This document shows, piece by piece, positions 4,030 to 31,309 of a DNA stretch of 37,188 nt (position 1 is its first letter; each line of letters starts with the position of its first letter). This DNA comes from an uncultured Chthonomonadales bacterium. Its GTDB lineage: Bacteria; Armatimonadota; Chthonomonadetes; Chthonomonadales; CAJBBX01. A program made the position numbers and the translations under genes. The stretch covers positions 1 to 37,188 of the forward strand of contig CAZGLN010000002.1 in NCBI GenBank assembly GCA_964526545.1, in the 5' to 3' direction. The notes below the pieces were generated by a model. It saw nothing but the letters and a program-made list of their open reading frames with translations. It had not been told where the DNA came from and did no database searches.

Positions 4030-4533
4030 TCAGGCCGAGAAGAGGTCCTCCTCCTTGCCGTCCATCCACGTCAGGCGGGCGTCAAGGAACGTATCCGTAA
4101 GCACAACGCGGAGCGCCTTGGCACCGGTAACCTCCGTGCCGGTACCGTCCGGCCTAAGGCCCAGGGTGATCCAGAGGCCGTCCAGAGAGTCCGGGTTCGG
4201 ACAGCTGATACAGATTCTGCGCCCCGCGGCCAGGAACTCGATGGTGCAGGGGAAGAGGCTCTGCGCCTGCTGGGCGCTCTCGCCCGTCACGTTGCGCACG
4301 TAGCGGGTCAGTGTTGCCGATATTAAGGGGCCCATTCCGTTGTGGTCCACGTCAATCTGAATGGCCAGGCTCTCTATCTCCTCCTGCGGCACGAACCTAT
4401 CGTTAAGGAAGAGGTAGTAGATGAACGGGCTCACTTCGGTAACGATTACGGAAACCAAACCTCCCCCCGCAATCCGAGCCACCTGGCTTGCCGGCGGGCG
4501 CTGATTGGTTTGGCCGCCTCTCCTATCAAACAC
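4030..4533 (-). CDS. Hypothetical protein (167 aa), last gene of the minus-strand locus
   Basis: GTG start with GGGAGGAC 5-6 nt upstream. Coding-like codon usage. No signal peptide and no recognised family. Confidence 0.6.
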   Translation of the reverse strand: MFDRRGGQTNQRPPASQVARIAGGGLVSVIVTEVSPFIYYLFLNDRFVPQEEIESLAIQIDVDHNGMGPLISATLTRYVRNVTGESAQQAQSLFPCTIEFLAAGRRICISCPNPDSLDGLWITLGLRPDGTGTEVTGAKALRVVLTDTFLDARLTWMDGKEEDLFSA

Positions 4534-4593
4534 TAAGGTCCTCCCATCGCCCGTTGGAAAGCCGCAACGCGGCCCCAGGCCTCCTGCCGGCTG

Positions 4594-5466
4594 CTAGTTG
4601 TATGTGGTGTAACGCAGGCCCTTGCGACGTGTAAGAAATGCCATGACGGCCCAGAAGAGCAAGGCAAAGACCGCGATTGCGATAAAAAGCCGCATCCAAC
4701 TGAAACTGCCAGGGTACATCGCCCCGCCATAGTAGACTGGCGGCGACCAGTAGAACGCGGGATGAAACGGCGTCCAGAAGTACCAGGCCGGCGCTCCCCA
4801 GCTGTAGCTGTAACGGCTCCATCCGCCGTAATCATTCGCTGGCACGCTGCGGCCCTCGTAACGATAGGTGCTGGTGGATGTCGGACGCCTGCCGTACCAC
4901 TCCGGCCGTGTGGAACTGGTGGTGCCGATACCGCTGGTCCCGAACGCTCCGGATCGTCCGAACGTGCTCGGCTCTCGGTAGCCCGTGCTGCCGCCGAACG
5001 AGCTGCGCGTGGAGGGCCGAGAGCTGGAGTAGCCGCTGCCTGAGCCGCCGAATGAACTGCCGCCGCCGATGGAGGAGCGCGGCGTGCTCCGGGAGCCGCC
5101 GAACAGGCTGTCGCCGCTCGAGCGTGAGCCGCTTCCGAACGAGCTCCCACCGCCGAAAGAGCGCGAGCCGCCGCCGAACGTACTTCCACCGCCGAAAGAG
5201 CGCGAGCCGCCGCCGAACGAGCTCCCACCGCCGAAAGAGCGCGAGCCACTGCCAAACGAACTTCCGCCGCCAAACGAGCGCGAACCGCCCCCAAAGGAGC
5301 CGCCCCCGCCGCCTCCGAACGATCCTCCGCCGCTACGCTGGCCCAGAGCTACCCCGCAGTGAGCGAGCATGAGCACCACCACCACGAAGGCACATGCCTT
5401 GCGCGCCACTCGGGCAAGGGTTCGGATATCGTGAAGCCTGAAAGTCTCCTGCCTCCCGCCGCTCAT
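4594..5466 (-). CDS. Gly/Ser-rich tandem-repeat protein with an N-terminal signal-like segment and a C-terminal TM helix
   Basis: GGAG SD 7 nt before the ATG. N-terminus: KACAFVVVVLMLAHCGVALGQ. About five copies of the 13-aa unit SRSFGGGS(S/T)FG(G/S)G. An aromatic-rich WY segment precedes LFIAIAVFALLFWAVMAFLTRRKG. Confidence 0.65.
   Translation of the reverse strand: MSGGRQETFRLHDIRTLARVARKACAFVVVVLMLAHCGVALGQRSGGGSFGGGGGGSFGGGSRSFGGGSSFGSGSRSFGGGSSFGGGSRSFGGGSTFGGGSRSFGGGSSFGSGSRSSGDSLFGGSRSTPRSSIGGGSSFGGSGSGYSSSRPSTRSSFGGSTGYREPSTFGRSGAFGTSGIGTTSSTRPEWYGRRPTSTSTYRYEGRSVPANDYGGWSRYSYSWGAPAWYFWTPFHPAFYWSPPVYYGGAMYPGSFSWMRLFIAIAVFALLFWAVMAFLTRRKGLRYTTYN
5115..5305 (-). repeat. In-frame tandem 39-nt repeats (about five copies) encoding the SRSFGGGSSFGGG units
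   Basis: The plus strand shows near-identical units ccaccgccgaaagagcgcgagccgccgccgaacg(ta/ag)ct(t/c)c repeated head to tail. The outer copies are more diverged. Confidence 0.8.
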
Positions 5467-5490
5467 CCGCGTTCTCCGTCGTCTTCCTGC

Positions 5491-5943
5491 CTAGCCGCCA
5501 AGGATATTATACGTGGCCACTTCGTCAGGGCCGAACCAGTGCGGCCGATAGATGGTTATGTAGGCTCGCACCACGTTATCCACCGCGTTGATATCCACAT
5601 AGAGCTCCACGACAGAGTTAGTCACTTCCTTGCCGTTGTGCCACACGCGGGTGGCCTCGAAGGCAAACGAGGGGTGCCTGTTCTCCACCGCCACCTGATG
5701 GCGCGGGAAGATCATCTCCAGGCGGCCGGGAAGTATCCCAGCCTCTTTTTCGGGGTTGCTCTGAAGCCGGACGATGGCGGTGAGCTCACCTCCCCTTGCA
5801 ATGCCGCCGCGGACCGGTGTGCCGCCCTCATCACGCCCGGCATACAGCTGCACGAAGAGCTGGGCGGCGTGCACCTCCGACCCGTTGTTGTGGAGAAAGG
5901 TGGAGTCCCACTCGCCTCCCGTCTTGAACACCATCTCGTTCAT
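5491..5943 (-). CDS. Hypothetical cytoplasmic-looking protein (150 aa)
   Basis: AGGAG about 10 nt upstream of the ATG. Good coding-like codon usage. No signal peptide or TM segment, and no family recognised. Confidence 0.65.
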   Translation of the reverse strand: MNEMVFKTGGEWDSTFLHNNGSEVHAAQLFVQLYAGRDEGGTPVRGGIARGGELTAIVRLQSNPEKEAGILPGRLEMIFPRHQVAVENRHPSFAFEATRVWHNGKEVTNSVVELYVDINAVDNVVRAYITIYRPHWFGPDEVATYNILGG

Positions 5944-6094: not shown

Positions 6095-8107
6095 CTAGAA
6101 GCGGCTGGCCTGGATATCGAAGTAGAAGCGGTGGCTGAACGTGGAGTAGTAGAGCGAGAGATCCCTGCCGCCCACCGTGCGCCCGAGGGTGAACTCGAAA
6201 TCACGGTAGGTGGCGGTGCCGAATTGCTGCAGATTCGCCCCCAGCGAGAAGCGCCACCGCGGCAGGAAGGTGTAGCTGAACTCTCCGAAGAGCCCGAGGT
6301 TGTTGGTGTCCAGCATCGCGTTGCCGTTGAGGAAGAGGGTCCACTTGTTTGGCGCGCCCGCCGTAAGCCCCACGCTGAGCCGATGCCTCCCGCCGAAGGC
6401 AAGGAACGTGGGCCGCTGCGTGAAGCTGTAGATGGCCTGCAGGCTGGAGCCCGGGCCGAGTGAGCGGCTGGCCATCAGCGAGGTATCGAGGAATACGCCG
6501 CTGCGCCCCTGAGTGGTCCAGGTGTGGCCGAACGAGATGTTGTTGGAGAGCGTGGTATCCCGATCCAGCCGAAACGGCTGGCTGAACATCCGCGCATGCA
6601 CTCCCTGACTGGAACCATTGAAGGCATAGTCGCCTATCTTCGAACGCGACATGCCCGCGGTAGCGCCGAAGGCCAGGCTGTAGCCCGTGCGTCCCAAGTT
6701 GCGAGGCGTGGTCTCCACGTAGGCATCCGCCTGCGTACCGCTGGACTGGAAGCCGGAAATCGAGCGATTGGCGGAGAGGTTCAGGCCGAGGTTGAGCGTG
6801 CCCATGCGCTTGGTGAGCGTGGTGGACCCAAAGACGCTGCGGTGCTGCGGCATGTCGAGGTAGATACTGCTGCGCAGATCGCCCGCGAACTCCTGGCTGT
6901 GCATCCAGTTGAGACCCCAATCGGACCGGTTGATGCCGGTCAGGCTGAGCTGCCCCGTGTAGCGCCGATTCATGCCGGAGGAGTTGTAGGTCTGCACGAG
7001 GTCCAGCATCAGGCCCGGCCGCGTGGAATAGACCGAATGGCCCATACGCTCGCCGTAACGCGTGCGCAGCACGCCGGTTGAGACGGCGGACATATCGTAG
7101 TAGAACGGGATATCTACGCCCAGCCCGGTAGTGCCCACGGTCACCAACTGGTCGGTGAAGAGCTGGTTGGAGTAGAGGCTCAGCGAGTAGAAGGGCATGT
7201 TGAATATCTGCACGCCCTCCTGGTAGAAGCGCGGACGCTTGAACTGCAGCTTGTCGCCGGGAAAGTAGAGAACTTGCCTCGCCGTTACAATCAGTTTCGC
7301 GGCGGAGAGGTCCTGCATCTCCAGGTACATGGGCGCCAGCCCTCCCTCCAGGGGCGATGTGCCAAGATCCGGCGCCACGGCAACGGGACGCAGACGGCCC
7401 TCCACTTCGGTGATGGCATACCCCTGCCCGGTAAAGAGGTCCAGATAGAGCCTGCCGCAGACCAGGCGCCTGCCGCCCCGCCGCAGGACCACCTCGCCAG
7501 ACGCCTTTACCGCGTTGCGCGAGCAGCTCACCTCCAGCAAGTCCGCGCTGATCTCGATGTTCCGAAAGCTGAGATAGGCCCCGGGCAGGTCGGGCGATCC
7601 CTCCTCGCGGGTGCGGCCCGTCGCACGGATGATGCGCTCTTCCGGCGCATAGACCAGCGAGGCGTTCCCTTGCACCACCACGTAGGTATTGCCCTGGTAG
7701 GTCTCGGCGGGATCATCGGTCAGCATGAGCACGCACGTCTGGAAGCCGCCGCCCGCCACCGTGGCCGTGATGGTGGTGGAACCCTTCTCCTGGCCGCTCA
7801 GCCTCACGCGCGCAGTGCCCGCACGGGTAGCGGCCGAGGCGCTCTTGCCGGACTGGGCGAAGGTGCCGAGCGTCGTGGTGAAGTTCACCATGGTGCCGTC
7901 GCGCGCGTAGGCTCCGGAGCTTTCGCGCACCTCGGCGATGATCTCGGCCGTGTCGCGCCCGTCATTCAGAATAGCCAGGCGGCTGGTGCGCAGGGTGATG
8001 GTAGGCACGCCTGCGGCCGCCGCGAGAGGAGCAACAAGGAGAGCCGAGACGGCCGCCGCCACGGGAAACGCCCTGAAGAGGTGCCGCATGCATCTACGCA
8101 TGTTCAT
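6095..8107 (-). CDS. LptD/OstA-like outer-membrane beta-barrel protein with an N-terminal bacterial Ig-like (Big_1-type) domain
   Basis: Signal peptide MRHLFRAFPVAAAVSALLVAPLAAAAG. Ig-like segment: ITLRTSRLAILNDGRDTAEIIAEVRESSG...TITATVAGG. OstA-like segment: YVVVQGNASLVYAPEERIIRATG...VKASGEVVLRRGGRRLVCGRLYLDL. A long run of alternating-pattern beta strands ends ...FYFDIQASRF (terminal aromatic). The start is ambiguous (ATG at 8107, 8101 or 8089). The ORF-track start at 8245 adds 46 implausible residues. Confidence 0.65.
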   Translation of the reverse strand: MNMRRCMRHLFRAFPVAAAVSALLVAPLAAAAGVPTITLRTSRLAILNDGRDTAEIIAEVRESSGAYARDGTMVNFTTTLGTFAQSGKSASAATRAGTARVRLSGQEKGSTTITATVAGGGFQTCVLMLTDDPAETYQGNTYVVVQGNASLVYAPEERIIRATGRTREEGSPDLPGAYLSFRNIEISADLLEVSCSRNAVKASGEVVLRRGGRRLVCGRLYLDLFTGQGYAITEVEGRLRPVAVAPDLGTSPLEGGLAPMYLEMQDLSAAKLIVTARQVLYFPGDKLQFKRPRFYQEGVQIFNMPFYSLSLYSNQLFTDQLVTVGTTGLGVDIPFYYDMSAVSTGVLRTRYGERMGHSVYSTRPGLMLDLVQTYNSSGMNRRYTGQLSLTGINRSDWGLNWMHSQEFAGDLRSSIYLDMPQHRSVFGSTTLTKRMGTLNLGLNLSANRSISGFQSSGTQADAYVETTPRNLGRTGYSLAFGATAGMSRSKIGDYAFNGSSQGVHARMFSQPFRLDRDTTLSNNISFGHTWTTQGRSGVFLDTSLMASRSLGPGSSLQAIYSFTQRPTFLAFGGRHRLSVGLTAGAPNKWTLFLNGNAMLDTNNLGLFGEFSYTFLPRWRFSLGANLQQFGTATYRDFEFTLGRTVGGRDLSLYYSTFSHRFYFDIQASRF

Positions 8108-8253: not shown

Positions 8254-9018
8254 CTAGTACGGCGGACTTGGCGGATTAAGCGCTCCGCCGCGGCCGCCGC
8301 CGCCACCGGCGGCAAGACCAATGCCCACGCCCAGGCCAACCACCAGCAGTCCAATCAGCCAGCCGGCGCTCCGCTTCTTCTTTCCACCCTCCGCCTTTGG
8401 CGTCGGCGTGGGAGCAGCCTGCTGCACAGGACCTGTCAGCGGGAAGAGGTCGGCCATCACGCTCTCGGCCGCCGCGCGCCCGGCCTCCAACGCCTTCTCG
8501 TCCTCCTTCGCGGTGCCGCCCTTTGCGCTTGCGCCGTTCTTCACCACGGTCTTGATGACCCGCCCGGTCTCAACCTCGATCAGACGCCCGCTCACCGTTA
8601 CGGTCACCTGATTGTCGGTGAACTGGTAATCATCTAGCGATCCGACCAGCGCCACGTCGTACCCGATCAGCTTCGCAATCTTCACGGGCTTGCGGTTATC
8701 TTCCGAGAAGGGCTCCTGGAGGTCCGCATCGGTCAGCTGCTGGTCGTTGTGCAGCCGGGTGATGGAGGGCTGGCCCCGGTAGAACTGAGTCACGGAATAG
8801 GTCTTCGTGGCGACTGCACGGGAGACAGCCACATCCGTCATCAGCTGAGACATCTCGTCCTTAGCGGGCACCGAGGCGGAGGTCACATCCACCGGAAAGA
8901 TGAGCAGCAGCTTCTTAACGGCCTGCGCCAGGTTGCCCTGGGCGGAACTGCCGGTACTGCTGCCCGCCAGGAGCACGCATATGGCGCCGATTGTCCCGAT
9001 TAGCGAACCAAGTCTCAT
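8254..9018 (-). CDS. Secreted/membrane protein with a CsgG/LpoB/TolB-N-like alpha/beta domain, a C-terminal TM helix and a Pro-rich tail
   Basis: Signal peptide MRLGSLIGTIGAICVLLAGSSTGSSAQG. Domain pattern: LLIFPVDV...LMTDVAVSRAVATKTYSV...IAKLIGYDVALVGSLDDY...VTVSGRLIEVETGRVI. TM helix WLIGLLVVGLGVGIGLAAGG, then NPPSPPY-COOH. The domain family is a pattern-level guess. Confidence 0.7.
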   Translation of the reverse strand: MRLGSLIGTIGAICVLLAGSSTGSSAQGNLAQAVKKLLLIFPVDVTSASVPAKDEMSQLMTDVAVSRAVATKTYSVTQFYRGQPSITRLHNDQQLTDADLQEPFSEDNRKPVKIAKLIGYDVALVGSLDDYQFTDNQVTVTVSGRLIEVETGRVIKTVVKNGASAKGGTAKEDEKALEAGRAAAESVMADLFPLTGPVQQAAPTPTPKAEGGKKKRSAGWLIGLLVVGLGVGIGLAAGGGGGRGGALNPPSPPY

Positions 9019-9183: not shown

Positions 9184-12100
9184 TTACCTCACCAGCAGAA
9201 TCTGCTGGGTCGCGGTGGCTACGTTGCCCTGATCATCGGTTGCCTTCAGTCTCAGGATGTAGCTGCCCGCTGGCATGGCAATTCCGGCCGCGTTCCGGCC
9301 ATCCCATAGCACGGTATTCGATCCGGCGGAAGCCGAACGGCCCTGGCTCACGGTCCGGATAGTCTGACCATTGTTGCCCACGATGTCCGCCGTTACCACG
9401 GCCTCATGCGAGAGTCCGTAGGTTACCGAGACACCGCCAGCAGACCGCGTCGCCGTCCTCACGTTGGTGATCACCAGCCGGCTGTTGAGAGCGGCCCGGC
9501 CGATGGTCAGCGCGAAGCGCCTCGGCGCGGTGTTCTCGCCCGTGTTGTAGGTGAGACCAGCGCCATTGGCCAGCGACCTGCGGCTGTTATTGCTCAGGTC
9601 CACGATGCTGACGCTGTACCGCCGGCCCAGCGTGCTGATGTTCGGGAACTGCAGCGATACATCCGCATTCTGCTGGTCGGTGGTTACCTCGAACACCACC
9701 AGTGACCCGGCAGGCACCGCCCTCGTCTCCGCCGGAAGCTGCACGGCATCCGGGTCAACGAACCGTACGGAGACGAAGTTCGCAAGGTACGGCGGCTTGA
9801 TCAGCTCCGCCATGCGGGTCTTGGCCGAGCCATCCAGCGGTACGAAGTTGTCCGTATCCATGCGGTCACCCATGCGGGCTACCACCTGGAGGGCATTGGA
9901 CCGGAAGTCGGCCGCCCTGCCCACCTCCACGCCACGGGTACCCGGCGTGGGCAGGATCAGCTCACACGCGGTGGTGGCGAAGAACCAGTAGGCCCTGCCA
10001 GGGATCAGTGTGTCACTGGCCTGCACCAGCTGGTAGCTCCGTGTCGCCCGGTTGTAGGTCCAGGCGAACGGCCTCACCGGACTGGCCGCGTTGGTGATGT
10101 TGACCGCCGCGCCTCCGGCCCTGGCCTGCAGCGCGCTGAAGTTGATAGGCTGCTGGAAGACGGAGCCCACCATGTTCCAGCCCGCGCCCAGGTTCACAGC
10201 GAACGGCTGCGTGGCATCCCACACGCGGCCTCTCGGATTAATCCGCAGAGCCGTGCGCGGGAATACCCAGTAACCCCTGCCCGCGAGGACCTGGAACGAA
10301 GGATCGCCAGCCCTCGGCGAGTTGAGGAAGTAGTAGTCGCCGGAGCCCCGCAGAGTCGGTGAGTAGGCCACCAGATCCAGCTCGGTCACGCTCACCGGCA
10401 CCCCGGCGGTCGTGGTCGGGCTGAAGGTGATGCCCGGATCCGGCGTGGTCGGGATGAGCGGCGAGGAGATCATGTCGGGCTCTTGCACAGGCAGATCCAC
10501 CGAGAAGCCGCGCACCTTGAACGGGAAGCGCGCCGAGACCGAGTCGTACACGCCAGCCACGCCGGCCCACTCCAGCACAAGCTGCCAATCGCCAGTCTGG
10601 TCCAGCCGGGCCGCGGAGGTGTAGGCGAACGTGCCATCCGCGTTGAAGGCGAAGGACTCCGTGAAGCCGCTGCCGTCGGGCTTCACGAACTGCGCCCTCA
10701 CCGTGCGGTTGCCCGCCGCGATCGGCGTATTCGTATCCACCTTTCCGGCGAAGGCATAGGGTGCGTCCGCCGTGCCATCGGCCAGAGGCGCTGGCGTGGT
10801 GGTGATGATGGTCGTGTTGAGAGTCGGCCCCACAAGCTGGCCGCCGCCCACCGGGAACTGGCCTACATAGTTCGGAGAGAGCGTATCAATCGCTTCGAAC
10901 CGGTAGGTGTGGTCCCTCCTCGTCTCGTCGCGGGCGAACCGGTAGGTTACCGAATAGCGCACGCCGTTTACGAAGTCGGTGCCAGGCTCGTCCTTGGTGA
11001 GCTGCAGGGTAACACGCTTCGCCGGATCCGCCTCATCTATGATCACGCGTACCACCGACGGCGGCGTGCCATCCGCGTTCTTGTAGATGATGGAGTAGCG
11101 GAAGTCCGTGGACTGCGGGCCGGATACCGGAGTGAGCGTGCCGATGGGCGCCGGAGGAGCAATGAGCTCCAGGATAGACCGCACCGTCAGGCCCGTGATC
11201 TCTCCGGTGGTGATGAACCGCGCCTGATCCGCAACGCCGCCGAGATTGTCCTCGGCCTCGAAGTGGAATGTGCGGATGCCCGGAGTGAGCACCACTGCGG
11301 CACTCTCGAATACCGCGCCGCCAGGTGTGTTTGGAGCGCCGCTCCGCAGTGTCATCGGGATCGTCGGGTTCGCAGGGTCATTGGTGACCACGCGCACCGC
11401 GGAGACCGGCGTAGTGTTGGAGTCCGTGTCTTTGTAGATCACGCGGAACACGAACCGATCGCCCTGGAGTCCCACGAGGGCGGGCTGCAGAGCTCCGTTG
11501 ACCACGTTCGGCGCGGAGCCCGGTCCGTTCGCCTCGAGGTAGGCCGTGCCGCTCTCCAGGCTTGGCGGATGGTTCACGTAAGGCCCGGTGTACTTGGTGC
11601 CGTCCGCACGCAGGGTTTTCAGCGTGGCGTTATCGGCCGCCTCTATCAGGTAGGTGTGCTGACCTGATCCGAGCTGGGCGCCGGAGGCCTGGAACGTATA
11701 CAGAACACCGTTCTCGATGTCGGCCGGGGTTGGGTTCGCCGGCGTGGTGGCCACCATGTCGAACGTGTTCTGGAGGACGGCGCCGGCCGCGTCATACACC
11801 TTCACCTGGATGCGCACCGGGAAGGTGCCATCCGCGTGGCGGTACCTTGCGGCGAAGGTGTAGTTGGCGTTGAACGGCCCCTGGAGCGGTGTCAGCGTGC
11901 CCTGGTTCGGCTGGTTCACGTCCGGCGGATCCAGCTCCGGAATGCTGAACACTGCGAGACCGGTGATCTCACCCGTGGCCGGGAACCGAGCGGTATCGAG
12001 CACCGTGTCAGCGGGCACGTCGTTCGGAGCCGGCCGCGACTTGTCGTTCGCGTCGAAGTGGAAGGTCTTCGGTCCCTTGGTGAGCTGCAGCGGTGCGCTC

Positions 12101-17034: not shown

Positions 17035-17212
17035 GCAGTCTCTCCCCTCAATCCCCTCTAGATCGCGCGAAACTCCTCCGCCGATCCCGCCTCAGGCCGC
17101 AGTTCAGTATCCACTTCGGCCCCTGCTTGTGTAGGCACCCGCGGCCTTCGCCGCCGGCCCTTGTGTCCCGGGGGATGGGACGTCGGATAATCTTGCTAAG
17201 TCCTCTATCCAC

Positions 17213-17245: not shown

Positions 17246-17258
17246 TATGAGCTCAATG

Positions 17259-19910: not shown

Positions 19911-20095
19911 CGATAGAACCCCTCCCTGGCGGTCCGCAGGCGGCCTGCTTCGCCGATATCGCGGCTTTGCCCGCACCCCCACTGCGCGCCCATGTAGCAA
20001 CGCCAAACATGCGCTGCGACTGGGGATGCCTGCTACTTACCCGTCCGCCCCTTTCTCAGGGCGCAAAACACCCGGCGGACCGGACGCTCTTTTCA

Positions 20096-20126
20096 CCGGG
20101 GGCGCTCTACATTCCTGCGCCCCCGG
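20096..20126 (-). terminator. Perfect 10-bp GC hairpin about 58 nt downstream of the S8 protease stop
   Basis: CCGGGGGCGC-N11-GCGCCCCCGG. No U-tract on the minus strand. Confidence 0.35.
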
Positions 20127-20183
20127 CACCTTCGTTGGTCACCCGGCCATCCAACACCGAGCACTAAGCGTTGGCTGTCCGGC

Positions 20184-23100: not shown

Positions 23101-23282
23101 TAGGCTGCGGCAATCTGATCAACAGCCGCCCGGGCGGTCCCGCCCGGCACGGTGATCAGCACCTCGCCGTTAACGAAGGCCGGCCGAACCACCTGCTGCG
23201 CCGATGCGCCCGGATAGCCCAGAACGCTCAGCACCGCGGCGAGCCCCAGCGCGCGAACAGCTATTTGAAGCCACTTGTGCAT
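20184..23282 (-). CDS. Secreted S8 (subtilisin-family) serine protease with an I9-like propeptide and the shared C-terminal cassette
   Basis: GAGAGGAG SD, with GTG at 23285 and ATG at 23282 in tandem. Signal peptide MHKWLQIAVRALGLAAVLSVLGYPGASAQ. Catalytic motifs: AVVDNGTDVDHPEF (Asp), HGTHVAGI (His), GTSMASPQVAG (Ser). The C-terminus reads ...GWNMVGCPFPF...TGHWLAV...ASDSFDLRDVAKPP...DVRLVWTGADGGGRKVPAGTYLIQIRAVGSEGDVARVVRPFTFTR. Confidence 0.9.
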   Translation of the reverse strand: MHKWLQIAVRALGLAAVLSVLGYPGASAQQVVRPAFVNGEVLITVPGGTARAAVDQIAAAYNLQVRQAFPNIDGQGARDVYHLRMNAANPTAEQTTALLAQLRADGRVLFAHHNSLKYKLQSGTAVPNDPRFGEQWGHIQMRMPQAWAIEKGQSHVTIAVVDNGTDVDHPEFQGRTLPGFNSVSGTNDPRPVPNTETHGTHVAGIAMAQANNGIGVAGVAWDNTRLLAINADNGVGGFSSAALIAAYDFVLAHKTNNPTRQVVMNLSLGAADASDTPNLADPENAKLLALANAGIVIVCGAGNDGAGGNPPFNPANMASAHRNILCVTATGQTGLRAVYSQFRPYSTVAAPGGDSTVGTTILSTFPVAAGSYGFQEGTSMASPQVAGVVALLLSIPGVSPGDVKDVLTSTARPVSGFRVPSPEYGYGIVDAAAALEKVAVSVTVMEPDGTGGKAGGGGGRLPDPVETLMPTLRVAVRQVPPADFVFKLDGTVITDYVIENITASIRDQQGNDVPLNYDAVVRTRLLSPGPHTIEVSGTKAGKTVTDIRFFTITPRQIPAGRSMIAIPYFENGATPEGYFGTDFRLARWVYDTVGIANGRSTATGRYAFYASTGAKEDGASFDKTGVAVRQDGDPATSGFLRGPVGLAFFADTESVKPVVTRGQPLTSRPFIIPLQAAPGGQSIGWNMVGCPFPFDVPFNSCLVDTPEGRLSVKIAVDKGYLLPNIYSFDSQNGYTFRTLPDGALRAWTGHWLAVGPGKPDIALVVPPSRTRAAESRAVTPSVEKGGWFLRLEATARGISDTQNFIGMSSRASDSFDLRDVAKPPTMSPYVSVGVVNDSWGALSGLYAQDIRGGTGTKSWTVVASTDLPNTDVTVRWNGIAGVPKSVRLTIKDETTGQTLDMRSRGSITFKSSDEATTRRFTITAKSAVGDVLRITNVSIRSGGTGRSEGTALVGFTLSGDAVTYEVQVLNAAGAPIATLASRSASAGDVRLVWTGADGGGRKVPAGTYLIQIRAVGSEGDVARVVRPFTFTR

Positions 23283-23308
23283 CACGTGAACTCCTCTCTC
23301 ACCGACCT

Positions 23309-23335
23309 CCCGCGGGCCATCTTCCGGCCCGCGGG
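23309..23335 (-). terminator. Perfect 10-bp GC hairpin in the 71-nt gap between the 638-aa gene and the S8 protease gene
   Basis: CCCGCGGGCC-N7-GGCCCGCGGG, lying between the stop at 23357 and the SD/start at about 23285. Too close to the next start to leave room for a promoter, so it more likely acts as an attenuator or processing/stability element. Confidence 0.35.
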
Positions 23336-23356
23336 GCTACGCCGAATATCCGCAAG

Positions 23357-25273: not shown

Positions 25274-25434
25274 TCTGATAGTTCCTCCCTCGATGACGTT
25301 CGCCTTACACCGGAACCGGAACGTACCGGGCGGGTTATCGAACGCTGAACAGATCTGCGGTTCCGTCTCGACTACGTGCTAGGAGGCAGAGCGCACGTCC
25401 TCCTCCTCGCCGGACCGTCTACCGCATGGAGGCA

Positions 25435-25463
25435 GGGCGAGCCCGTCACCGATTAGCTCGCCC
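25435..25463 (-). terminator. 8-bp GC hairpin 19 nt downstream of the first large gene of the locus
   Basis: GGGCGAGC-N13-GCTCGCCC. No U-tract. Confidence 0.3.
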
Positions 25464-25481
25464 CGCACACCAACGAACGCA

Positions 25482-28400
25482 CTACCTCACTATCAACACC
25501 TGACCGGCTGCACGCGCGGTCTGCGAACCATCCGCGGATCTGGCCTCGATGATCACCGCGTAGGATCCCGCGGGCACCACGATGCCCTGATCGTTCTTCT
25601 GGTCCCACGTCTGCTCATGGATTCCCGCCGCGCGGGTGCTTCCGGAAGAGAGATTCCGAACGGTCGTGCCATTCGCGCTTATCACCGTCAGCTTCACCGA
25701 GGCACTGCCGGAGAGCGCATACGATATCGTCGTGGATTGCGCGCTGCGGCCCGTCCGCGTGGAGACCTGACTCACGATCAGCCTGTCGTTCGTCTGCGCA
25801 CCCACCTCTATTCGGAAGCGCCTCGTGGTCTCCCCCTCGCCAGTTACCCACGTGTATCCACCCGAGCTGCGCATATCTCTCCGCTCGCCCGTAGCGAGAT
25901 CCACAAACGTCAGGCGCACGTTTCGCCGCACCGCCGCGGTATTCGGCCAGGAGATGGAGGCCGACGCCTTCTCCACGTTGGTGCGCACGCTGAACTCGTA
26001 CACCTTCTGCCCTGGTGCGGCCGATCGCACATCCACCGCGTAGGCGCCGGCACGGTCGCCCCAGTTCGGATTATCGAAAGCGCCGTAGACATACTTCTCA
26101 CCGAACAGCGGCGGCTTCTCGGCCTTGAAGGCATCGAATCCATCGCTTGCTCGCGAGCTCTGGCCGAAGTGGTTATCATCATCCCGCACTCCGCCCACGG
26201 CCACGCGCAAGTTCACCGTCCAGCCGTCGCCTCCCTGCAGAATTGCACGGCTGTTCGCCGCAGGGAGAGTTGCCGATCTTCTGCTGGTTATCGGATCCAC
26301 GAGAAGCGTTACCGCCTCGTAGGCCCGCACCCAGTAACCTCGCCAGGGCTGCAGCCGGAAGTCGAGCACGTAGCTGCCGCTCACATACCCGAAGATGGCC
26401 GCGCCGACCTTCCCCTGTGTAACCGCTTGCTGGTAGGTGAGCAGCGTGCCGTTGGCCAGCCGCACCCCCACGCGGGTCCAGTCTATCTCGAACGGGAACG
26501 GATTGCCGATCATGTTCCAGCCCGGATTCAGCCCGATGTCAAACGGCCGGGTCTGATCCGCCAGGATTCCCTCCGTGGCCAGCGGGAGGTTGTTGCGATA
26601 GGCAAGCCAGTAGCCCTGTCCCAAGCGGAAGGTTGTCGTGGGTGCCTGCGGATAGAAGCTGTACTGCCGCAGCAGCCACGTGGCGAACAGGAACGCGCCG
26701 TTGGTTCGGTCCGCCGCCGGGATGCCAAGCAGATCGCCCACGTTCTGGTTCGGATAGTCGTACGGCGCCGAGACAAGCGACAGATTGCCCGAGAACGTGT
26801 GCAGCGGCTGCATGGAGAAGTTGACGTTCTTGGTCTCCTGCTGGCTGACCACGGCTGCCGTTCTGTTCAGCGGCGTGGGCGTGTAGCCCGCCAGTGCGGC
26901 AGTTACGGTGTATGTCACCCCGGCCGGCACGTCCGTCAGCCGCCAGTTGTAGGTGTAGCCCGTGCCATCCGTGATTGCCGGCGTGAAGGTATTCATGCTT
27001 GCAATCAGGTTATTGGCAGCATCCCGTATCTGCACCAGGACTCCCGCGAGCGGCTGGTTGTTTGCGGAGTTCGTTACCAGGCCGGAGACCACGCCAGGCG
27101 GTATCGCCCGCAGGCGTATCGGGTTCGGATCCGGCTCGGAGTTCTGCCCCGTGACGATGGTCAACGTGGATGGAGGGCTGTTCGGCGAGCGGCCGGGCGC
27201 CGTGGCCACTACCGACCAGGTCCCCGGATCCAGCCCGTTCGGCGGCGTGTTATTGCTGTTGAAGGAGAAGTTGCCCGTGGCATCCGTGATGGCAGTAACC
27301 GTCTGGCCGCCCAGAGTCGCGGTGACCACTGCACCGGCAATGCCCTCGGCGGGGCTCTCGTCCTTCACCACGCGGCCCGTGGCGCTTCCGGGTTCCGGCT
27401 TCATCCGGAAATCGAAACCGGTATACGTCTTCGCCGCTACCACGAGCTGATCACGCTGGCCCGCGTTCGGATCGTTCGGATTCGGCACGGGGTAGTTGAG
27501 CGGTGTGCTCTCACCGAACGACGGCGCGGTGCAGGTGAGCGTGTAACGCGTTCCCGCCGGCACGCGGTCCAGCGAATAGTTGCCCTGCACGTCGGAGGTA
27601 GCCGTGATGACGACAGGGGTTACCCCAGGACCAACCACCTCGGTCAAGGTGAGCGTGGCACCCACCACCGGCGTGGTGCCATCCATCCGTGTCACTTTGC
27701 CGCGCACCACTGCGGGCTCGGCAGCCGTCATGCGGATATCCACACGATCCCGGGCATGCCCATGCACGACGACGGCGGTTGGACGCCCAACAAGGAAGCC
27801 CGCTCTGGTCGCCGACACCTCGTAGGTGCCAGCCTCCACGCCATTGATGAAGAAGTTGCCGGAGGCATCGGTAAGCGCGGTGTACCGCACGGCGTTCGGC
27901 GTGGGATAGTTATCAATGAGCCGCACCAGCACATCCTTGAGCGGCGTGCCGGCTCCCTCCAGGTCGCGCACGTTGCCGATGACCTGCCCGGTGCGCATCC
28001 AGCAGAGGGCGTTGTGCACCAGGGAAGTGCGCCGGCTCTTCATGATGACCGTGCTATCCACCGTGAAGCCCTGCGGCACGTAGCCCTCGAGACCCATCGG
28101 CGCGTAGACCACGCGGGCGTTGGTGGTGGTGTCCTCGTAGTGGAGCACTCCGGTAAGGCCGTTGGCAAAGTTGAAATCCGCCACGGCGCCGCTCAGCGGC
28201 ACCACCATGTCCGGCCACATGTTGCCGGGGCAGCCATAGGTCCGGTCTTCGTTCGGCGCCGGCAGACCGCCCGAGAGGCGGTTCTCCGGATTGTAGATGA
28301 AGTCCTCGATGCTCGGCGGCACCGGCGGGCCGGGATAGTTGTGGTGCGAGACGATGCGCGTCTTGCGCCACGGGTCGTTTACGATGGGATTGTAGGAGCC

Positions 28401-28886
28401 CGCCCCGGGTGCGGTGAGCTCATAGGCGCCCGCCGCGATGTAGGTGAGCGGCAACCCGAAGCCGTTGCTCAGGAAGCGGCTCACGCCGATGGCGGAATCC
28501 TGCCGAAAGTCTGCCCGCAGGTCGTTGCGCAGGAAGCTGTTCTGCAGCGCTCCGTTCAGCGTGAGCGCCCAGGCGATATCCTGCCCGTTCACCAGCAGGC
28601 GCCCGCCGGCCCGGATGAAGTTGCTCAGCATGTTCTGCGTCGCAAGCTCCGTCAGGGTACCGGGCGCGGAGAAGACGTTGCCGGTGTACGGCGCATGCCA
28701 TATCACGGCGCGCGGCGCAACCAGAACGGTGCGGGGAGAGGCCTCGCCGCTCACCGTATCCGGCGGCTGCAGCTCGTTGCGCGGCGCGTAGAACTGCAAG
28801 ACCGAATCCGGCACGGGACCGCGGCACTGAATGCGCCAGATGTCGTACTGCTGCGTCGCAGCCGTTCTCGACCGTGGTGCCGTCAA
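25482..28886 (-). CDS. C-terminal part (1,134-aa ORF) of a frameshift-split ~1,899-aa protein: GATase1/ThuA-like region, four CarboxypepD_reg-like domains and the shared C-terminal cassette
   Basis: There is no SD or signal peptide at the nominal TTG start, and the frame is open further upstream. CarboxypepD_reg-like units: GQVIGNVRDLEG..TDASGNFFINGVEAGTYEVSATRAGF; VVRGKVTRMDG...DVQGNYSLDRVPAGTRYTL; ATGRVVKDES...TDATGNFSF; VVSGLVTNSAN.... The C-terminus reads ...GWNMIGNPFPF...RGYWVRA...ASDGFDAFKAEKPP...EQTWDQKNDQGIVVPAGSYAVIIEARSADGSQTARAAGQVLIVR. Confidence 0.8.
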   Translation of the reverse strand: MTAPRSRTAATQQYDIWRIQCRGPVPDSVLQFYAPRNELQPPDTVSGEASPRTVLVAPRAVIWHAPYTGNVFSAPGTLTELATQNMLSNFIRAGGRLLVNGQDIAWALTLNGALQNSFLRNDLRADFRQDSAIGVSRFLSNGFGLPLTYIAAGAYELTAPGAGSYNPIVNDPWRKTRIVSHHNYPGPPVPPSIEDFIYNPENRLSGGLPAPNEDRTYGCPGNMWPDMVVPLSGAVADFNFANGLTGVLHYEDTTTNARVVYAPMGLEGYVPQGFTVDSTVIMKSRRTSLVHNALCWMRTGQVIGNVRDLEGAGTPLKDVLVRLIDNYPTPNAVRYTALTDASGNFFINGVEAGTYEVSATRAGFLVGRPTAVVVHGHARDRVDIRMTAAEPAVVRGKVTRMDGTTPVVGATLTLTEVVGPGVTPVVITATSDVQGNYSLDRVPAGTRYTLTCTAPSFGESTPLNYPVPNPNDPNAGQRDQLVVAAKTYTGFDFRMKPEPGSATGRVVKDESPAEGIAGAVVTATLGGQTVTAITDATGNFSFNSNNTPPNGLDPGTWSVVATAPGRSPNSPPSTLTIVTGQNSEPDPNPIRLRAIPPGVVSGLVTNSANNQPLAGVLVQIRDAANNLIASMNTFTPAITDGTGYTYNWRLTDVPAGVTYTVTAALAGYTPTPLNRTAAVVSQQETKNVNFSMQPLHTFSGNLSLVSAPYDYPNQNVGDLLGIPAADRTNGAFLFATWLLRQYSFYPQAPTTTFRLGQGYWLAYRNNLPLATEGILADQTRPFDIGLNPGWNMIGNPFPFEIDWTRVGVRLANGTLLTYQQAVTQGKVGAAIFGYVSGSYVLDFRLQPWRGYWVRAYEAVTLLVDPITSRRSATLPAANSRAILQGGDGWTVNLRVAVGGVRDDDNHFGQSSRASDGFDAFKAEKPPLFGEKYVYGAFDNPNWGDRAGAYAVDVRSAAPGQKVYEFSVRTNVEKASASISWPNTAAVRRNVRLTFVDLATGERRDMRSSGGYTWVTGEGETTRRFRIEVGAQTNDRLIVSQVSTRTGRSAQSTTISYALSGSASVKLTVISANGTTVRNLSSGSTRAAGIHEQTWDQKNDQGIVVPAGSYAVIIEARSADGSQTARAAGQVLIVR

Positions 28887-31179
28887 TCGTGCGCGAATCC
28901 CTGCCGTAGAAGAACGTCCCGGGATCGCGCGGGTCCGAACCGCCGTAGGAGCGCGCGCCGAGCGTGTGCCGCACGTTGAGCAGCGGCTGAACGTTGCCTC
29001 CGCTCAGGGCCGTGCGCGGAAGCAGATTCACGTCGAAATCGGTCATCCAGGATTCGGTGCCCCAGAAGGCATGGAGCACGTTCACCGGCCGCGCCAGGCC
29101 GAAGCGCGAGCTGAAGAACTTCTGCCCCTGCGCATGGTCGCTCACGAAGAGCACGCCATTCTGCGGGTTGAAGCCCTGCGTGCTGAAGCCCCAGACGTTG
29201 TCGTAGATCTTCCAGTTGCTGCGGTTGAGCGTGAAGGGATCTACCGCGTTGTCATACGCGATCACGTCCACCAGGTAGTCCGAGGGGAATGGCGGCGTGC
29301 GCCACGTGGCAGAGTACGTGCTCACGCCCGTGGCCGGGTCGCGACTGACAAGGTTGAGCCGCAGCCAGCCCGTGTCCCGCTGCGGATTCAGCGGATCTAC
29401 GGGAGGATGCGTGCCGCCTGAGAAGGCGAAATAGTCGTCAATGGACGGAATGTAGGTCGGCCGGGCATAGGTGTTCACCCGCGGATCGGCGGGGTCGGAG
29501 CCGATGAAGATGCGCTGGCTCTCCCACTCAATCGGCGTGTTGATGGCACTGACCGGACCGGACATGAAGGAGAGGGTCTGGAAGATGTAGACCTTGTGCT
29601 CCTGCCCATCCGAGGACTGGTACTTGCTGTTCGGGTTCTTAATCTGCACCCAGACATCGCGAATGCCGGATTCGAAATCCGCCATCTTCACCGAGATTCT
29701 CACGTCGCTGCCGGGCTGCGCCAGCCGCGGCTCCACGCTCACAATCTCCTGGGTGACCTCGTTAAAGCGGATGAGCGTGGGCGCGTAGATATCAATGAGC
29801 GTCGAGGCGAAGATGTCTCGCGGCGTGCTGGCCACCGCCGGATTGGGCGTGGAGAGATCCGTTACCTCGTCGTAGGCGGTGCGGTTGGTATCGTAGGCTA
29901 CGCGATACGTCTCGATGAACTGCGGCCACGCGGGCTTCCGGTCATCGTACTGATGACTGCTATCGCTGGTAGGCAGCTTGCGTGCCGCATTGAGGGCGGA
30001 CTCGGGCGTGAGCACCGTGTAGGAGCCCGGATTACCCGCGTCCGGCCCCACCGTGGCCTCCAGCCAGTAGATGTCGCTGGTGCCGTTCGGGTTGATGCTG
30101 TCCGCATTGCCATCGTTCGCGGAGTCGCGCCGGGTGGAAGCGAAAGCGATCAGCTGCCGACCATTGACAAACGATTGCGGCCCGTTGACCTCGTCAATCT
30201 TGTTGGTGCTCCAGGCCGGCTCGATATTGTTCGAGCTGGTGCCTCCCACGGAGAAGTTGGTTACGCGGGTGGCCGCCGTGGCCGGGAAGGCGTTGACTGG
30301 AACCACCCAGATATCGCGGGTCGCCTTGGTGGCCGTGCCCGCCGGGTTGGAGCGGTTCGAGTCGAAGGCGAGCACCAGCCGGAAGGGATTGCCGGCATCC
30401 GTGGGGCTCAGAGTAGGGTTGCGGTCGTCCGCGATGCCGGTGGTGATCTGAGTCACCCGGCCGCTCTGCGTATCCACCGCGAAAAGGTTGAAATTCTGGC
30501 GGCCCTGCAGCCGGCCCGCGAAGTAGACCGCGATATTGCCGCCGGAGGCGACGCCGTACTGCGGGTTGTTGAGGCCCGTGAAGACAAAGCCCTGCGGGTT
30601 GTTGCGCACCAGCGACTTGGTGACGCCGGTGGAGAGGTTCAGCTCCACGATGTCCACCGAGCCATCCGTCTCCAGGTTCTGCACATTGCCTGGCGTGGTC
30701 TCGATATAGACAATGGAGGACCCGCTACTGCTCACCGCGACCTGGCTCTGGGAAGCATTCGCGCCCACGGGCGGCGACGCCAAAGGTCCCGTAACGGCGA
30801 ACACGCCGCGGCCATCCGAGGTCATCCGGTAGATGTGGAAAAGATTGCCGGCCTGCGTGCCGGCGAGATCGTTCCGGTTCGATTCGAAGTAGATGGACCG
30901 CTCATCTCGCGTCCAGAACGGACGGCGATCCATGACCTGGGGAGTACCCGGCGTGAGGTTGATGGTCCGCTGAGGAATCCCGAGCCCGCGGCCCTCCTGG
31001 CCCCGCCAGGCCCTCTCCGTCACCTCGCGAGGCAAGGGACCACCTAGGAAGGGTTTCTTGAGCTTGCCCGTGGAGGGATTCCAGAGACTCTCCTGGCCAA
31101 AGGCTCCCGAGGAGGTGCCTAGCAGCAGAAAGGCTGCCAAGAGTGACAGGCAGACGTGAAGGGGTCGCACTGTTTTCAA
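28420..31179 (-). CDS. N-terminal part (919-aa ORF) of the same split gene: signal peptide plus a TolB-like (PD40) beta-propeller and additional beta-rich domains. Residues after about nt 28870 are out-of-frame read-through.
   Basis: TTG start with AGGAGG 11 nt upstream. Signal peptide MKTVRPLHVCLSLLAAFLLLGTSSGAFGQ. PD40-like blades: RSIYFESNRNDLAG...LFHIYRMTSDG; RLVLAFDSNRSNP...RDIWVVPV; QLIAFASTRRDSA...SDIYWLE. The last ~150 codons turn Arg/Ala-rich and overlap the better-looking frame of 25482..28886. Confidence 0.8.
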   Translation of the reverse strand: MKTVRPLHVCLSLLAAFLLLGTSSGAFGQESLWNPSTGKLKKPFLGGPLPREVTERAWRGQEGRGLGIPQRTINLTPGTPQVMDRRPFWTRDERSIYFESNRNDLAGTQAGNLFHIYRMTSDGRGVFAVTGPLASPPVGANASQSQVAVSSSGSSIVYIETTPGNVQNLETDGSVDIVELNLSTGVTKSLVRNNPQGFVFTGLNNPQYGVASGGNIAVYFAGRLQGRQNFNLFAVDTQSGRVTQITTGIADDRNPTLSPTDAGNPFRLVLAFDSNRSNPAGTATKATRDIWVVPVNAFPATAATRVTNFSVGGTSSNNIEPAWSTNKIDEVNGPQSFVNGRQLIAFASTRRDSANDGNADSINPNGTSDIYWLEATVGPDAGNPGSYTVLTPESALNAARKLPTSDSSHQYDDRKPAWPQFIETYRVAYDTNRTAYDEVTDLSTPNPAVASTPRDIFASTLIDIYAPTLIRFNEVTQEIVSVEPRLAQPGSDVRISVKMADFESGIRDVWVQIKNPNSKYQSSDGQEHKVYIFQTLSFMSGPVSAINTPIEWESQRIFIGSDPADPRVNTYARPTYIPSIDDYFAFSGGTHPPVDPLNPQRDTGWLRLNLVSRDPATGVSTYSATWRTPPFPSDYLVDVIAYDNAVDPFTLNRSNWKIYDNVWGFSTQGFNPQNGVLFVSDHAQGQKFFSSRFGLARPVNVLHAFWGTESWMTDFDVNLLPRTALSGGNVQPLLNVRHTLGARSYGGSDPRDPGTFFYGRDSRTIDGTTVENGCDAAVRHLAHSVPRSRAGFGLAVLRAAQRAAAAGYGERRGLSPHRSGCAARRDMACAVHRQRLLRARYPDGACDAEHAEQLHPGRRAPAGERAGYRLGAHAERSAAEQLPAQRPAGRLSAGFRHRREPLPEQRLRVAAHLHRGGRL

Positions 31180-31280
31180 GACGGATCTTACCTCCTAGAG
31201 AGCGCGCTACTTATGGGGGAAGTAAGTCTCACCGGGGACGGCCAGACAGATGCCGGCCTGGATCCGCCCTGCCGGCGGGG

Positions 31281-31309
31281 ATTATAGCATATGCCCTCTG
31301 AGTGTGCAA
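31281..31309 (-). promoter_or_regulatory. Sigma70-type promoter upstream of the large minus-strand locus
   Basis: On the minus strand: TTGCAC (31309-31304) - 17 nt - TATAAT (31286-31281), with a TGC extended -10. It lies about 100 nt upstream of the TTG start at 31179, in the 318-nt gap after coaE. Confidence 0.5.

Follow-up and report, generated by a model that had tools for sequence, protein, structure and literature searches.

Lipopolysaccharide (LPS) translocons, type IX secretion and invasin-like adhesins are the closest described systems for comparison here. In the LptD-LptE translocon of Proteobacteria, a periplasmic jellyroll is followed by a large outer-membrane barrel of 26 strands, which adjoins a lipoprotein plug partner, LptE. 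In E. coli LptD the inter-domain disulfides link C31/C173 with C724/C725. The barrel of intimin and invasin is 12-stranded and shares its polypeptide with Ig domains of the Big_1/Invasin_D3 kind. Clients of the type IX secretion system (T9SS) carry a C-terminal domain (CTD) of ~80 aa, and T9SS CTDs end in a basic residue. LptD-family barrels have also been found to bring proteins to the surface, namely the LptD homologue of Borrelia (BB0838) and, for surface lipoproteins of E. coli, LptDE (bioRxiv 10.1101/2022.12.21.521298; PMC12065857).

We analysed a window of 37,188 nucleotides from an uncultured Chthonomonadales bacterium (contig CAZGLN010000002.1). ORF calls made from the sequence alone gave ten genes at 4030-31179, all on the minus strand and separated by gaps of 24-273 nt, exactly as the original prediction had it. 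All features described below lie on this strand. The upstream neighbours, coaE (31498-32121) and rpsA (32137-33570), are conserved across the phylum. Rfam and tRNA scans found no match inside the locus. We compared the parts with Pfam, NCBIfam, structure databases and the literature and, as had been proposed, they matched no known system; nothing like this cluster has been described before among the literature searched.

The barrel gene (6095-8107, alternative start 8245) encodes an LptD-superfamily outer-membrane protein, assigned from a structure model and profiles. Its parts are, in order, a signal peptide, an Ig domain, an LptD_N-like jellyroll, a barrel of ~22 strands and a C-terminus ending in SRF. 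The AlphaFold model (pLDDT 78.7) was used for a Foldseek search of the PDB, where the 14 top matches were all LptD (E 4e-14 to 1e-11 over 635-891 alignment columns), with TM-scores of only about 0.3. DSSP counted ~21-22 long strands, which is an approximate count made without inspecting the coordinates. The jellyroll corresponds to a beta-rich domain at residues 143-310 of the model. LptD_N (PF03968) was matched weakly by 9 of 30 family members, with a best E of 0.0046 that falls below the curated cut-off, and LptA matched the barrel at E 0.042. The jellyroll is thus present at the level of fold and suggestive at the level of sequence, and the original description of the barrel as LptD/OstA-like, with an added Ig domain, holds at the fold and profile level.

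LptD is therefore the best fold match of this protein, which differs from it in several respects. Pfam and NCBIfam gave the barrel no match beyond the Ig domain, which scored as Big_1/Invasin_D3, and their LptD models (OstA_C) matched neither the window barrel nor 10 distant family members. The barrel has ~22 strands against 26, an extra N-terminal Big_1 Ig and no C-terminal cysteines: the only conserved cysteines of the family, C195 and C217, both fall in the jellyroll region. The family C-terminus is a near-invariant R-F, and a C-terminal R-F is typical of the beta-signal of BAM-dependent outer-membrane proteins. We found more than 100 full-length clusters at 50% identity, and the family is present in two classes of Armatimonadota; literature searches combining Armatimonadota with LptD returned nothing relevant. 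The combination of a Big_1/Invasin_D3 Ig and a barrel on one polypeptide recalls intimin and invasin. Here, however, there is only one Ig, it is N-terminal and, by analogy with LptD, would be periplasmic, and the barrel is large and LptD-like. An inverse autotransporter was rejected on these grounds of reversed domain order, single Ig and barrel type.

Two further genes encode LpoB-like proteins. The 638-aa protein (23357-25273), a core partner present in every class of linked locus, starts with an invariant MKRIRKSRAAR N-terminus and a hydrophobic segment, followed by an LpoB/TolB-N-like alpha/beta domain and a small beta domain. The remainder comprises a hydrophobic helix, a Gly/Ser run, low-complexity sequence and a conserved C-terminal region ending in PPPPP. 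The 254-aa protein (8254-9018) has a signal peptide, an alpha/beta domain that shares ancestry with the 638-aa protein's N-domain, and a C-terminal hydrophobic helix that is missing in some relatives. BLASTP detected no similarity between the two, whereas hhalign of the 254-aa family against the 638-aa family gave 96.1% probability (E 3.3e-9). They had been called CsgG/LpoB/TolB-N-like paralogues; from these comparisons they are remote homologues, related at the profile level only, and their LpoB/TolB-N-like character holds at that level too.

LpoB was the sole PDB sequence match of the 638-aa family (9e-4, to the N-domain). Pfam matches among barrel-adjacent proteins were weak (LptE 0.0049, TolB_N 0.0059), Pfam and NCBIfam found nothing for the 254-aa protein, and stored annotations of relatives held faint LpoB and CsgG matches, CsgG in one relative. 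Adjoining the barrel and having an LpoB/TolB-N/LptE-type alpha/beta fold, the partners may correspond to LptE. Unlike LptE, LpoB and CsgG they lack a lipobox and are not lipoproteins, and they have hydrophobic helices and long extra regions; compared with LpoB, the 638-aa type adds 350 aa that include the helix and the PPPPP-ending region. No PBP, Tol-Pal or curli genes lie nearby. A CsgG of the curli type was rejected for the missing lipobox, the missing curli genes and the single faint CsgG match.

Four proteins of the locus share a C-terminal cassette of ~430 aa. They are the product of the first gene (25482-31179; cassette roughly 25482-26783), a 1033-aa S8 protease (20184-23285; cassette roughly 20184-21566), an 883-aa protein (17259-19910, or 915 aa from an alternative start at 20006; cassette roughly 17259-18560) and a 2616-aa protein seen in closer relatives only (9184-17034; cassette roughly 9184-10485). 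The four C-termini are 23-34% identical over 360-500 aa by BLASTP and each is closed by Pfam FlgD_ig (1e-9 to 1e-10; 3.6e-10 for the last domain). The prediction of four cassette proteins was borne out to that extent, with the reservation that the first gene is split by a frameshift. That of an S8 protease carrying the cassette was correct: Peptidase_S8 (PF00082) matched residues 155-428 at 1.9e-39, in addition to FlgD_ig. The 883-aa protein is the orthologue of the lone cassette protein in minimal loci.

The cassette consists of three beta-sandwiches, the last of them FlgD-Ig-like. Its model (pLDDT 84.8) gave generic multi-domain Ig/FN3 matches in Foldseek at TM about 0.2, with nothing specific matching modules A and B, and the profile of the 883-aa family matched PDB entries at the FlgD-Ig end only. 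The cassette is always C-terminal; in 117 of 142 relatives its profile ends right at the stop codon. It ends in a near-invariant P-h-h-h-x-R, with Arg as the last residue in 130 of the 142. Its passengers are unrelated to each other (S8, propeller, CarboxypepD_reg, ASH-Ig, Sortilin/PhoD_N), and it was found both on clustered and on unlinked genes. The proteins have ordinary signal peptides and no lipobox, so they are not lipoproteins. Because of the C-terminal placement, the varied passengers, the linked and unlinked use and the terminal Arg, we infer that the cassette resembles a tail used for sorting or anchoring. Sortase anchoring was discarded, since no hydrophobic or charged tail accompanies the P-h-h-h-x-R end and the locus encodes no sortase. 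Literature searches on Armatimonadota with FlgD and secretion gave nothing relevant.

Conservation of the neighbourhood was a check set beforehand, and it came out strongly positive, judged on up to 10 kb to either side of each match. In 8 of 9 distinct barrel-seeded loci, a 638-aa-type gene and at least one cassette gene lay directly upstream of the barrel. These loci include Chthonomonadales and Fimbriimonadaceae, from two classes of Armatimonadota, with barrel identity as low as 27-28% and differing downstream flanks. Word-indexed homologue searches with the whole cassette or its first two modules returned few full-length relatives; metagenome cassette loci were gathered by a DNA-pattern scan instead. 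Of 78 metagenome loci seeded with the cassette, 51 were linked; removing redundancy at 90% identity left 62, of which 38 were linked. The set is biased towards close relatives since it was drawn from the best 80 of at least 267 matches. A scan of genome contigs with two narrow peptide patterns yielded 5 loci, all from Chthonomonadales.

Arrangements varied around the same three kinds of part: 638-aa type, cassette gene and barrel; cassette gene, 254-aa-like gene and barrel; or two genes of the 254-aa type. The invariant core has three members, placed after rpsA-coaE: the 638-aa type, a cassette protein of ~900 aa and the barrel. Additions at the level of the order are the S8 protease, which is conserved in Chthonomonadales-type loci, a ~1900-aa protein, the 2616-aa protein and the 254-aa paralogue. 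As these additions and three small orphan ORFs all lie outside the invariant core, the ten-gene system of the original prediction overstates the unit. Judged from these comparisons, the locus is best explained as a putative envelope operon that is conserved in Armatimonadota and has been expanded in Chthonomonadales. Exceptions were also found: one genome has a barrel without linked partners, with surE and pdxA nearby, and at least 12 cassette genes stand without a linked partner over 3 kb or more of downstream sequence.

Starting from the observed gene content, folds, homologies, conserved linkage and modular use of the cassette, we tentatively favour, at a little less than even confidence, an LptD-superfamily translocon module on which the cassette proteins depend for their placement at the surface. 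The barrel and the LpoB-like protein or proteins would form an LptDE-like outer-membrane complex. The other two members of the core are read as a membrane-associated protein of the 638-aa type, with the LpoB/TolB-N/LptE-fold domain in the periplasm, and a Sec-exported ~900-aa protein with the three-beta-sandwich cassette at its end. The cassette, with its P-h-h-h-x-R terminus, would serve as a docking module by which secreted proteins dock to, cross or are retained by the complex, thereby reaching the cell surface. Chthonomonadales would have added further cassette clients, namely the ~1900-aa propeller/CarboxypepD_reg protein, the S8 protease (whose own part in the process, if any, is conjectural) and the 2616-aa protein, and would have gained a second LpoB-like paralogue. 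The same barrel may also serve the phylum as its LPS translocon. We consider it less likely than not that the locus goes as far as an unrecognised outer-membrane protein export and anchoring pathway of Armatimonadota, in which an LptD-derived barrel and LpoB/LptE-fold partners read the ~430-aa cassette and place large enzymes and adhesin-like proteins on the surface; this would amount to a new type of secretion system on an LPS-export scaffold.

Several observations count against this module. The Borrelia and E. coli systems resemble the locus in using an LptD-family barrel, with a putative surface role here, but those precedents concern lipoproteins and the handling of a lipid anchor, whereas the cassette proteins have ordinary signal peptides and a three-domain C-terminal cassette. 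The jellyroll suggests transport of lipid rather than protein. The fixed site after rpsA-coaE and the phylum-wide, apparently single-copy occurrence of the barrel suit a housekeeping gene, and the lone barrel, the unlinked cassette genes, the generic beta-sandwiches and the TM-scores of about 0.3 to LptD also weigh against the module. Being phylum-wide, beside rpsA-coaE and alone in one genome, the barrel stays a candidate for a divergent housekeeping LptD that inserts LPS. The LpoB/LptE-fold neighbours would then be LptE-like partners, and the cassette proteins would be co-located, perhaps co-regulated and possibly LPS-binding, and not exported through the barrel. Genes for LPS synthesis and for BamA are present in Armatimonadetes (PMC5007114; PMC4072686; PMC5629042), so an LPS translocon is needed there; the literature that gives these LPS genes holds no Lpt inventory for the phylum, and no Pfam or NCBIfam profile names any protein of the window LptD. 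The LptD-like fold, the LptD_N trace and the large two-class family agree with this. Set against it are the partners that are not lipoproteins and the lower strand number, extra Ig and lack of C-terminal cysteines for inter-domain disulfides. The linkage to large cassette-bearing secreted proteins is likewise foreign to the Lpt system, and its persistence at 27-28% barrel identity and with changed outer flanks is unusual for unrelated neighbours. We regard the housekeeping LptD as possible, with the balance of probability against it.

The cassette and the barrel each invite one further comparison, and neither leads to a probable alternative. An Ig-fold tail at the C-terminus of unrelated passengers, machinery-linked or not, with a protease encoded alongside, is what T9SS CTDs show, and the locus could be a divergent relative: its terminal Ig would be a CTD of the T9SS type, with the roles of PorV, Sov and PorU taken over by the barrel and its LpoB-like neighbours. 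The FlgD-Ig-like end was indeed faintly similar to the CTDs of PorU (E 0.03) and PorZ (0.14), two relatives had sub-threshold Por_Secre_tail matches (1.9e-4 and 0.0027), and the basic terminal residue recalls T9SS CTD ends. Yet no window protein matched Por_Secre_tail (PF18962) or an NCBIfam T9SS sorting-domain model at E <= 0.01, the tail being FlgD_ig instead, and its conserved unit is three domains of ~430 aa rather than ~80 aa. The S8 protease is itself tailed, PorV, PorU, Sov (SprA) and PorK-N are absent from this and the related loci, and the barrel fold is that of LptD and not of FadL or SprA. T9SS is, to our knowledge, known only from the FCB group, and we consider this origin highly unlikely. 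Slimmer still are the chances of a chaperone-usher-like, fibre or S-layer platform in which the barrel polymerises cassette proteins as an usher. As a fold class, FimD and PapC ushers ranked second for the barrel (E 2.5e-7 and weaker), and the cassette's top single Foldseek match was the S8 protease Vpr in its fibril form, with an S-layer protein also listed; but LptD matched six to seven orders of magnitude better, ushers have no counterpart of the jellyroll, Pfam and NCBIfam found no periplasmic chaperone or pilin-like subunit in the locus, and all cassette matches were generic at their low TM. An equally small chance attaches to gene order simply inherited in a slowly rearranging region, without any functional unit. 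Beside the cluster rpsA-coaE and, in some genomes, DUF1054 and a carbonic anhydrase are retained as well; however, the three kinds of part recur in varied order, copy number and outer flank and share envelope localisation signals, and the expansion of cassette and LpoB-like paralogues within the cluster points to selection on the set.

The Armatimonadota, diderm bacteria that branch on the Terrabacteria side of the tree, are widespread but have been little studied, and knowledge of outer-membrane assembly and surface decoration in lineages of this sort is scant. Should the barrel prove to be the LPS translocon, it is an unannotated, strongly divergent LptD with a smaller barrel, an extra Ig and non-lipoprotein partners, which bears on the evolution of LPS export and on the 'missing' LptD/E of some diderm lineages. 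If it exports or anchors cassette proteins, the locus would represent a novel Lpt-derived path for secretion or anchoring, extending the recent findings on LptD-family barrels and surface lipoproteins. Either way, the analysis gives clear profiles for four protein families or modules that lacked annotation, and the cassette with its terminal Arg gives a simple signature for listing candidate surface proteins in the phylum.

The three small orphans named in the prediction are a 167-aa ORF (4030-4533), a 290-aa Gly/Ser-repeat ORF with a C-terminal hydrophobic helix (4594-5466) and a 150-aa ORF (5491-5943). Their GC3 of 0.76-0.79 is gene-like, but they are not conserved as parts of the system: Pfam and NCBIfam matched none of them, and all other loci lacked them except for the 150-aa ORF, which recurred on one near-identical contig of the same species. 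Each gene had also been given its own Shine-Dalgarno sequence, and a GGAGG-like motif does precede 9 of the 10 starts, that of the barrel being ambiguous. The proposed near-consensus promoter (31281-31309) corresponds to a sigma-70-like TGCACA-16-TATAAT with an upstream TG, at 31308-31281 in the 318-nt spacer between coaE and the first gene. It agrees at 10 of 12 positions and is the top-scoring site in 20000-33700. Since the number of promoter-like sites in the region (3, against 2.6 +/- 1.5 expected after shuffling) was not above chance, we treat it as a consensus match only. Terminator-like sites were at or below chance, with none between genes of the cluster.

The first gene was found as two overlapping frames, 28420-31179 and 25482-28886. 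The N-terminal part (28855-31179) encodes a signal peptide and a ~770-aa region with a weak TolB-propeller match, and the C-terminal part (25482-28859) four CarboxypepD_reg domains and the cassette. Its counterpart in relatives is a single in-frame ORF of 1871-1951 aa, which places a frameshift near 28855, and the out-of-frame tail has a GC3 of 0.49 compared with about 0.8 in real genes. Programmed frameshifting was rejected: there is no slippery run at the site and the frame is intact in every relative, which makes a mutation or an assembly error the more likely cause.

We found that the cluster's outer-membrane barrel (6095-8107, minus strand) most closely resembles LptD in fold. Pfam and NCBIfam detected nothing in it except a Big_1/Invasin_D3 Ig domain. 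A model built from a 30-sequence alignment (pLDDT 78.7) comprised a signal helix, an Ig domain (residues 36-130), a beta-rich domain (143-310) and ~21-22 long strands extending to the C-terminus, as counted from DSSP strings only. LptD structures took all of the top 14 places among the PDB matches of this model in Foldseek (E from 4e-14 to 1e-11 over 635-891 aligned columns), with TM-scores of ~0.3 that are probably low due to domain orientation; ushers followed at E 2.5e-7 and weaker. At the sequence level, LptD_N was matched weakly by 9 of the 30 family members (best 0.0046), and a search with the barrel returned LptA at E 0.04 and LptD at E 0.12. In contrast to canonical LptD, the barrel is smaller, carries an additional Ig domain, has no LptD/OstA_C sequence match and has both of its conserved cysteines within the jellyroll. 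Family members have ...RF as a near-invariant C-terminus. Among 1.84 billion representative proteins, 419 matched the barrel profile below 1e-30, and the best 150 of these were mostly full-length (~640-720 aa) with the same architecture. All members with taxon names, a minority of the sequences, were Armatimonadota (Chthonomonadales, 'Armatimonadetes' and Fimbriimonadaceae).

The 638-aa (23357-25273, minus) and 254-aa (8254-9018, minus) proteins had been described in the original prediction as paralogous and CsgG/LpoB-like. BLASTP of one against the other found nothing, but their family profiles could be aligned over 184 columns (96.1% probability, E 3.3e-9). The N-domain of the 638-aa family matched LpoB structures at 9e-4, with weak matches to LptE and TolB_N. 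Members of this family begin with an invariant N-terminus (MKRIRKSRAAR..W.LLT), which leads into an alpha/beta domain and then a small beta domain; next come a hydrophobic helix with a G/S run after it, stretches of low-complexity G/T/N sequence and a conserved C-terminal region ending in PPPPP. No lipobox was found in either the 638-aa or the 254-aa protein. A simple signal-peptide plus stop-transfer topology appears to fit the 638-aa family poorly, because the internal hydrophobic helix has the basic residues on its N-terminal side (alignments A2 and A4).

Four proteins of the cluster (2616 aa, 883 aa, the ~1900-aa product of the first gene and the S8 subtilisin-family protease, 20184-23285, minus) share 23-34% identity over their C-terminal 430-460 residues. 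Alignment with orthologues divided this cassette into three modules: A (~180 aa; motifs vSxPY, GxGYW, GWNxIGNPF and PWxGYWV), B (~150 aa; GWxLxL, DGxDxxDxxKPP, lsWP and DxxTGxxxxMR) and C, a FlgD_ig domain (Pfam 1e-9 to 1e-10; FlgD structures at 3.6e-10). The AlphaFold model was all-beta (pLDDT 84.8, pTM 0.72), consistent with three sandwich domains; Foldseek with this model gave nothing specific, only generic Ig/FN3 multi-domain proteins. A faint likeness to T9SS C-terminal domains was observed (PorU 0.03, PorZ 0.14), and Por_Secre_tail was detected below threshold in two relatives. In 142 related ORFs reaching the profile end, this end was the stop codon in 117 and the final residue was Arg in 130, preceded by a P-h-h-h-[T/V/A] pattern. 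Cassette genes found alone varied in their N-terminal parts (CarboxypepD_reg; Sortilin/BNR propeller with PhoD_N; S8 with fn3; ASH-type Ig). The cassette appears to act as a modular tail for sorting or anchoring, carried at the C-terminus.

The neighbourhood was conserved in relatives, with eight of nine distinct barrel-seeded loci linked. Chthonomonadales-type loci (L001, L002, L013, L014) encode, in order, a ~1900-aa cassette protein, a 650-700-aa LpoB-like protein, the S8-cassette protease, a ~900-1000-aa cassette protein, a 220-370-aa paralogue and the barrel; their downstream flanks differ. More distant loci (L012, L093-L095), one of them from a named Fimbriimonadaceae genome, have ppx / rpsA-coaE, a 590-760-aa LpoB-like gene, a single 870-1040-aa cassette gene, the barrel and a 495-617-aa gene. 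The last, unannotated and on the same strand (L012:12438-13925; L093:11964-13817; L094:11940-13685; L095:11994-13715), may be a further component that is missing from the window. In one further genome (L011; GCA_964429225.1, contig CAYSAW010000001.1) the barrel homologue (27% identity) stands by itself, between clpS and a class-V aminotransferase. A few kb away lie surE and pdxA; in E. coli, pdxA and lptD are neighbours in an operon.

A cassette-seeded metagenome scan gave at least 267 relatives. In the best 78 loci, which are skewed to relatives of the query, partly redundant and in many cases cut by contig ends, 51 had a cassette ORF linked to a 638-type, 254-type, barrel or second cassette gene (38 of 62 clusters after de-replication at 90% identity). 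Twelve cassette genes were alone, with partners absent in at least 3 kb downstream; four of these were partner-free for at least 3 kb on both sides. The full order rpsA-cassette-638-cassette(S8)-cassette-254-barrel occurred in seven of the 78, and variants included 638-cassette-barrel, cassette-254like-barrel, cassette-cassette-barrel and a doubled 254-type gene. The 2616-aa gene was confined to closer relatives. None of the three small minus-strand ORFs (167 aa, 4030-4533; Gly/Ser-repeat, 290 aa, 4594-5466; 150 aa, 5491-5943) was found in other loci, save the 150-aa ORF on a 99%-identical contig. In locus L069, a 3288-aa protein with many Big_1-type Ig repeats (11377-21240) follows the last cassette gene, in the usual place of the 254-type gene and barrel; the locus stops short of where any barrel would come into view.

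Within the window (G+C 64-67%), the listed genes were all present on the minus strand at 4030-31179, with spacers of 24-273 nt. GGAGG-like motifs preceded nine of the ten starts, each of which had been assigned its own SD, and none was clear at the barrel start (~8107/8089). The proposed promoter, TGCACA-16-TATAAT with an upstream TG (31308-31281, minus), lies between coaE and the first gene and is the sole strong sigma-70-like match on the minus strand of the region; it is plausible rather than demonstrated, because the regional match count equals that of shuffled sequence. A sequence scan found no terminator-like sites between cluster genes. The next genes upstream, likewise on the minus strand, are coaE (31498-32121; 46% identity to coaE of a related locus) and rpsA (32137-33570). 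This pair holds the same position in Chthonomonadales-type and Fimbriimonadaceae-type loci (the window; L010, L012, L093-L095), the latter also having a divergent ppx/gppA farther upstream; a ribosomal-protein gene beside an envelope cluster is an unusually stable synteny. Convergent with the cluster end are a carbonic anhydrase of the beta class with fused zinc-ribbon domains (1517-3277, plus) and a DUF1054 gene (3296-3940, plus), a pair that also flanks the barrel in L002. The sole RNA gene found was tRNA-Leu(CAA) (33831-33915, plus).

Selection appears to act on a set of three, namely the LpoB-fold protein, the ~900-aa cassette protein and the LptD-like barrel, and the window cluster would be an order-level expansion of this set. 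All cluster products carry Sec-type signal peptides and, with the OMP-type C-terminus of the barrel, this suggests that they meet in the envelope. All functions discussed for the cluster are ones we infer. The barrel belongs to the LptD superfamily, the only one known to have a lateral opening into the outer leaflet. This superfamily has also been implicated in bringing lipoproteins to the surface in Borrelia and E. coli (bioRxiv 10.1101/2022.12.21.521298; PMC12065857). Because of these properties, the envelope products and the tail-like cassette, we tentatively favour a translocon-plus-client module, at slightly below an even chance, in which the barrel would be the translocon and the cassette proteins clients set on the cell surface.

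The main rival, which we regard as possible if not probable, is that the barrel is simply the phylum's own LptD, its partners and neighbours being specific to the lineage. Armatimonadota produce LPS and possess BamA (PMC5007114; PMC4072686; PMC5629042), the locus adjoins housekeeping genes and the barrel can stand alone (L011). This reading and the favoured translocon-plus-client module are compatible and not mutually exclusive. T9SS-like or usher-like systems, or mere synteny of the genes, are less likely. In the literature searched we found no paper linking Armatimonadota with LptD or an FlgD-tail secretion route, and Pfam and NCBIfam gave no curated family for the barrel, the 638-aa family or cassette modules A and B. 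It is safest to call this an outer-membrane module of the LptD superfamily whose partners have no precedent; that it is a protein export or anchoring system of a truly new kind is possible, though less likely than not.

The first gene of the cluster is interrupted, its two ORFs (28420-31179 and 25482-28886, minus) overlapping in different frames. The frames join near 28855 (within 28840-28870, minus; ...DGTTVENG / (A)TQQYDIWRIQ...). Since its relatives are all single in-frame ORFs of 1871-1951 aa and no homopolymer or slippery run is present at this site, the frameshift would be either a genuine mutation that inactivates the gene or an error in the assembly. The out-of-frame tail has a GC3 of 0.49, against ~0.8 for real genes. 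An alternative 253-aa ORF overlapping the Gly/Ser-repeat gene (4533-5294, minus) was rejected as a non-coding frame, also with a GC3 of 0.49.
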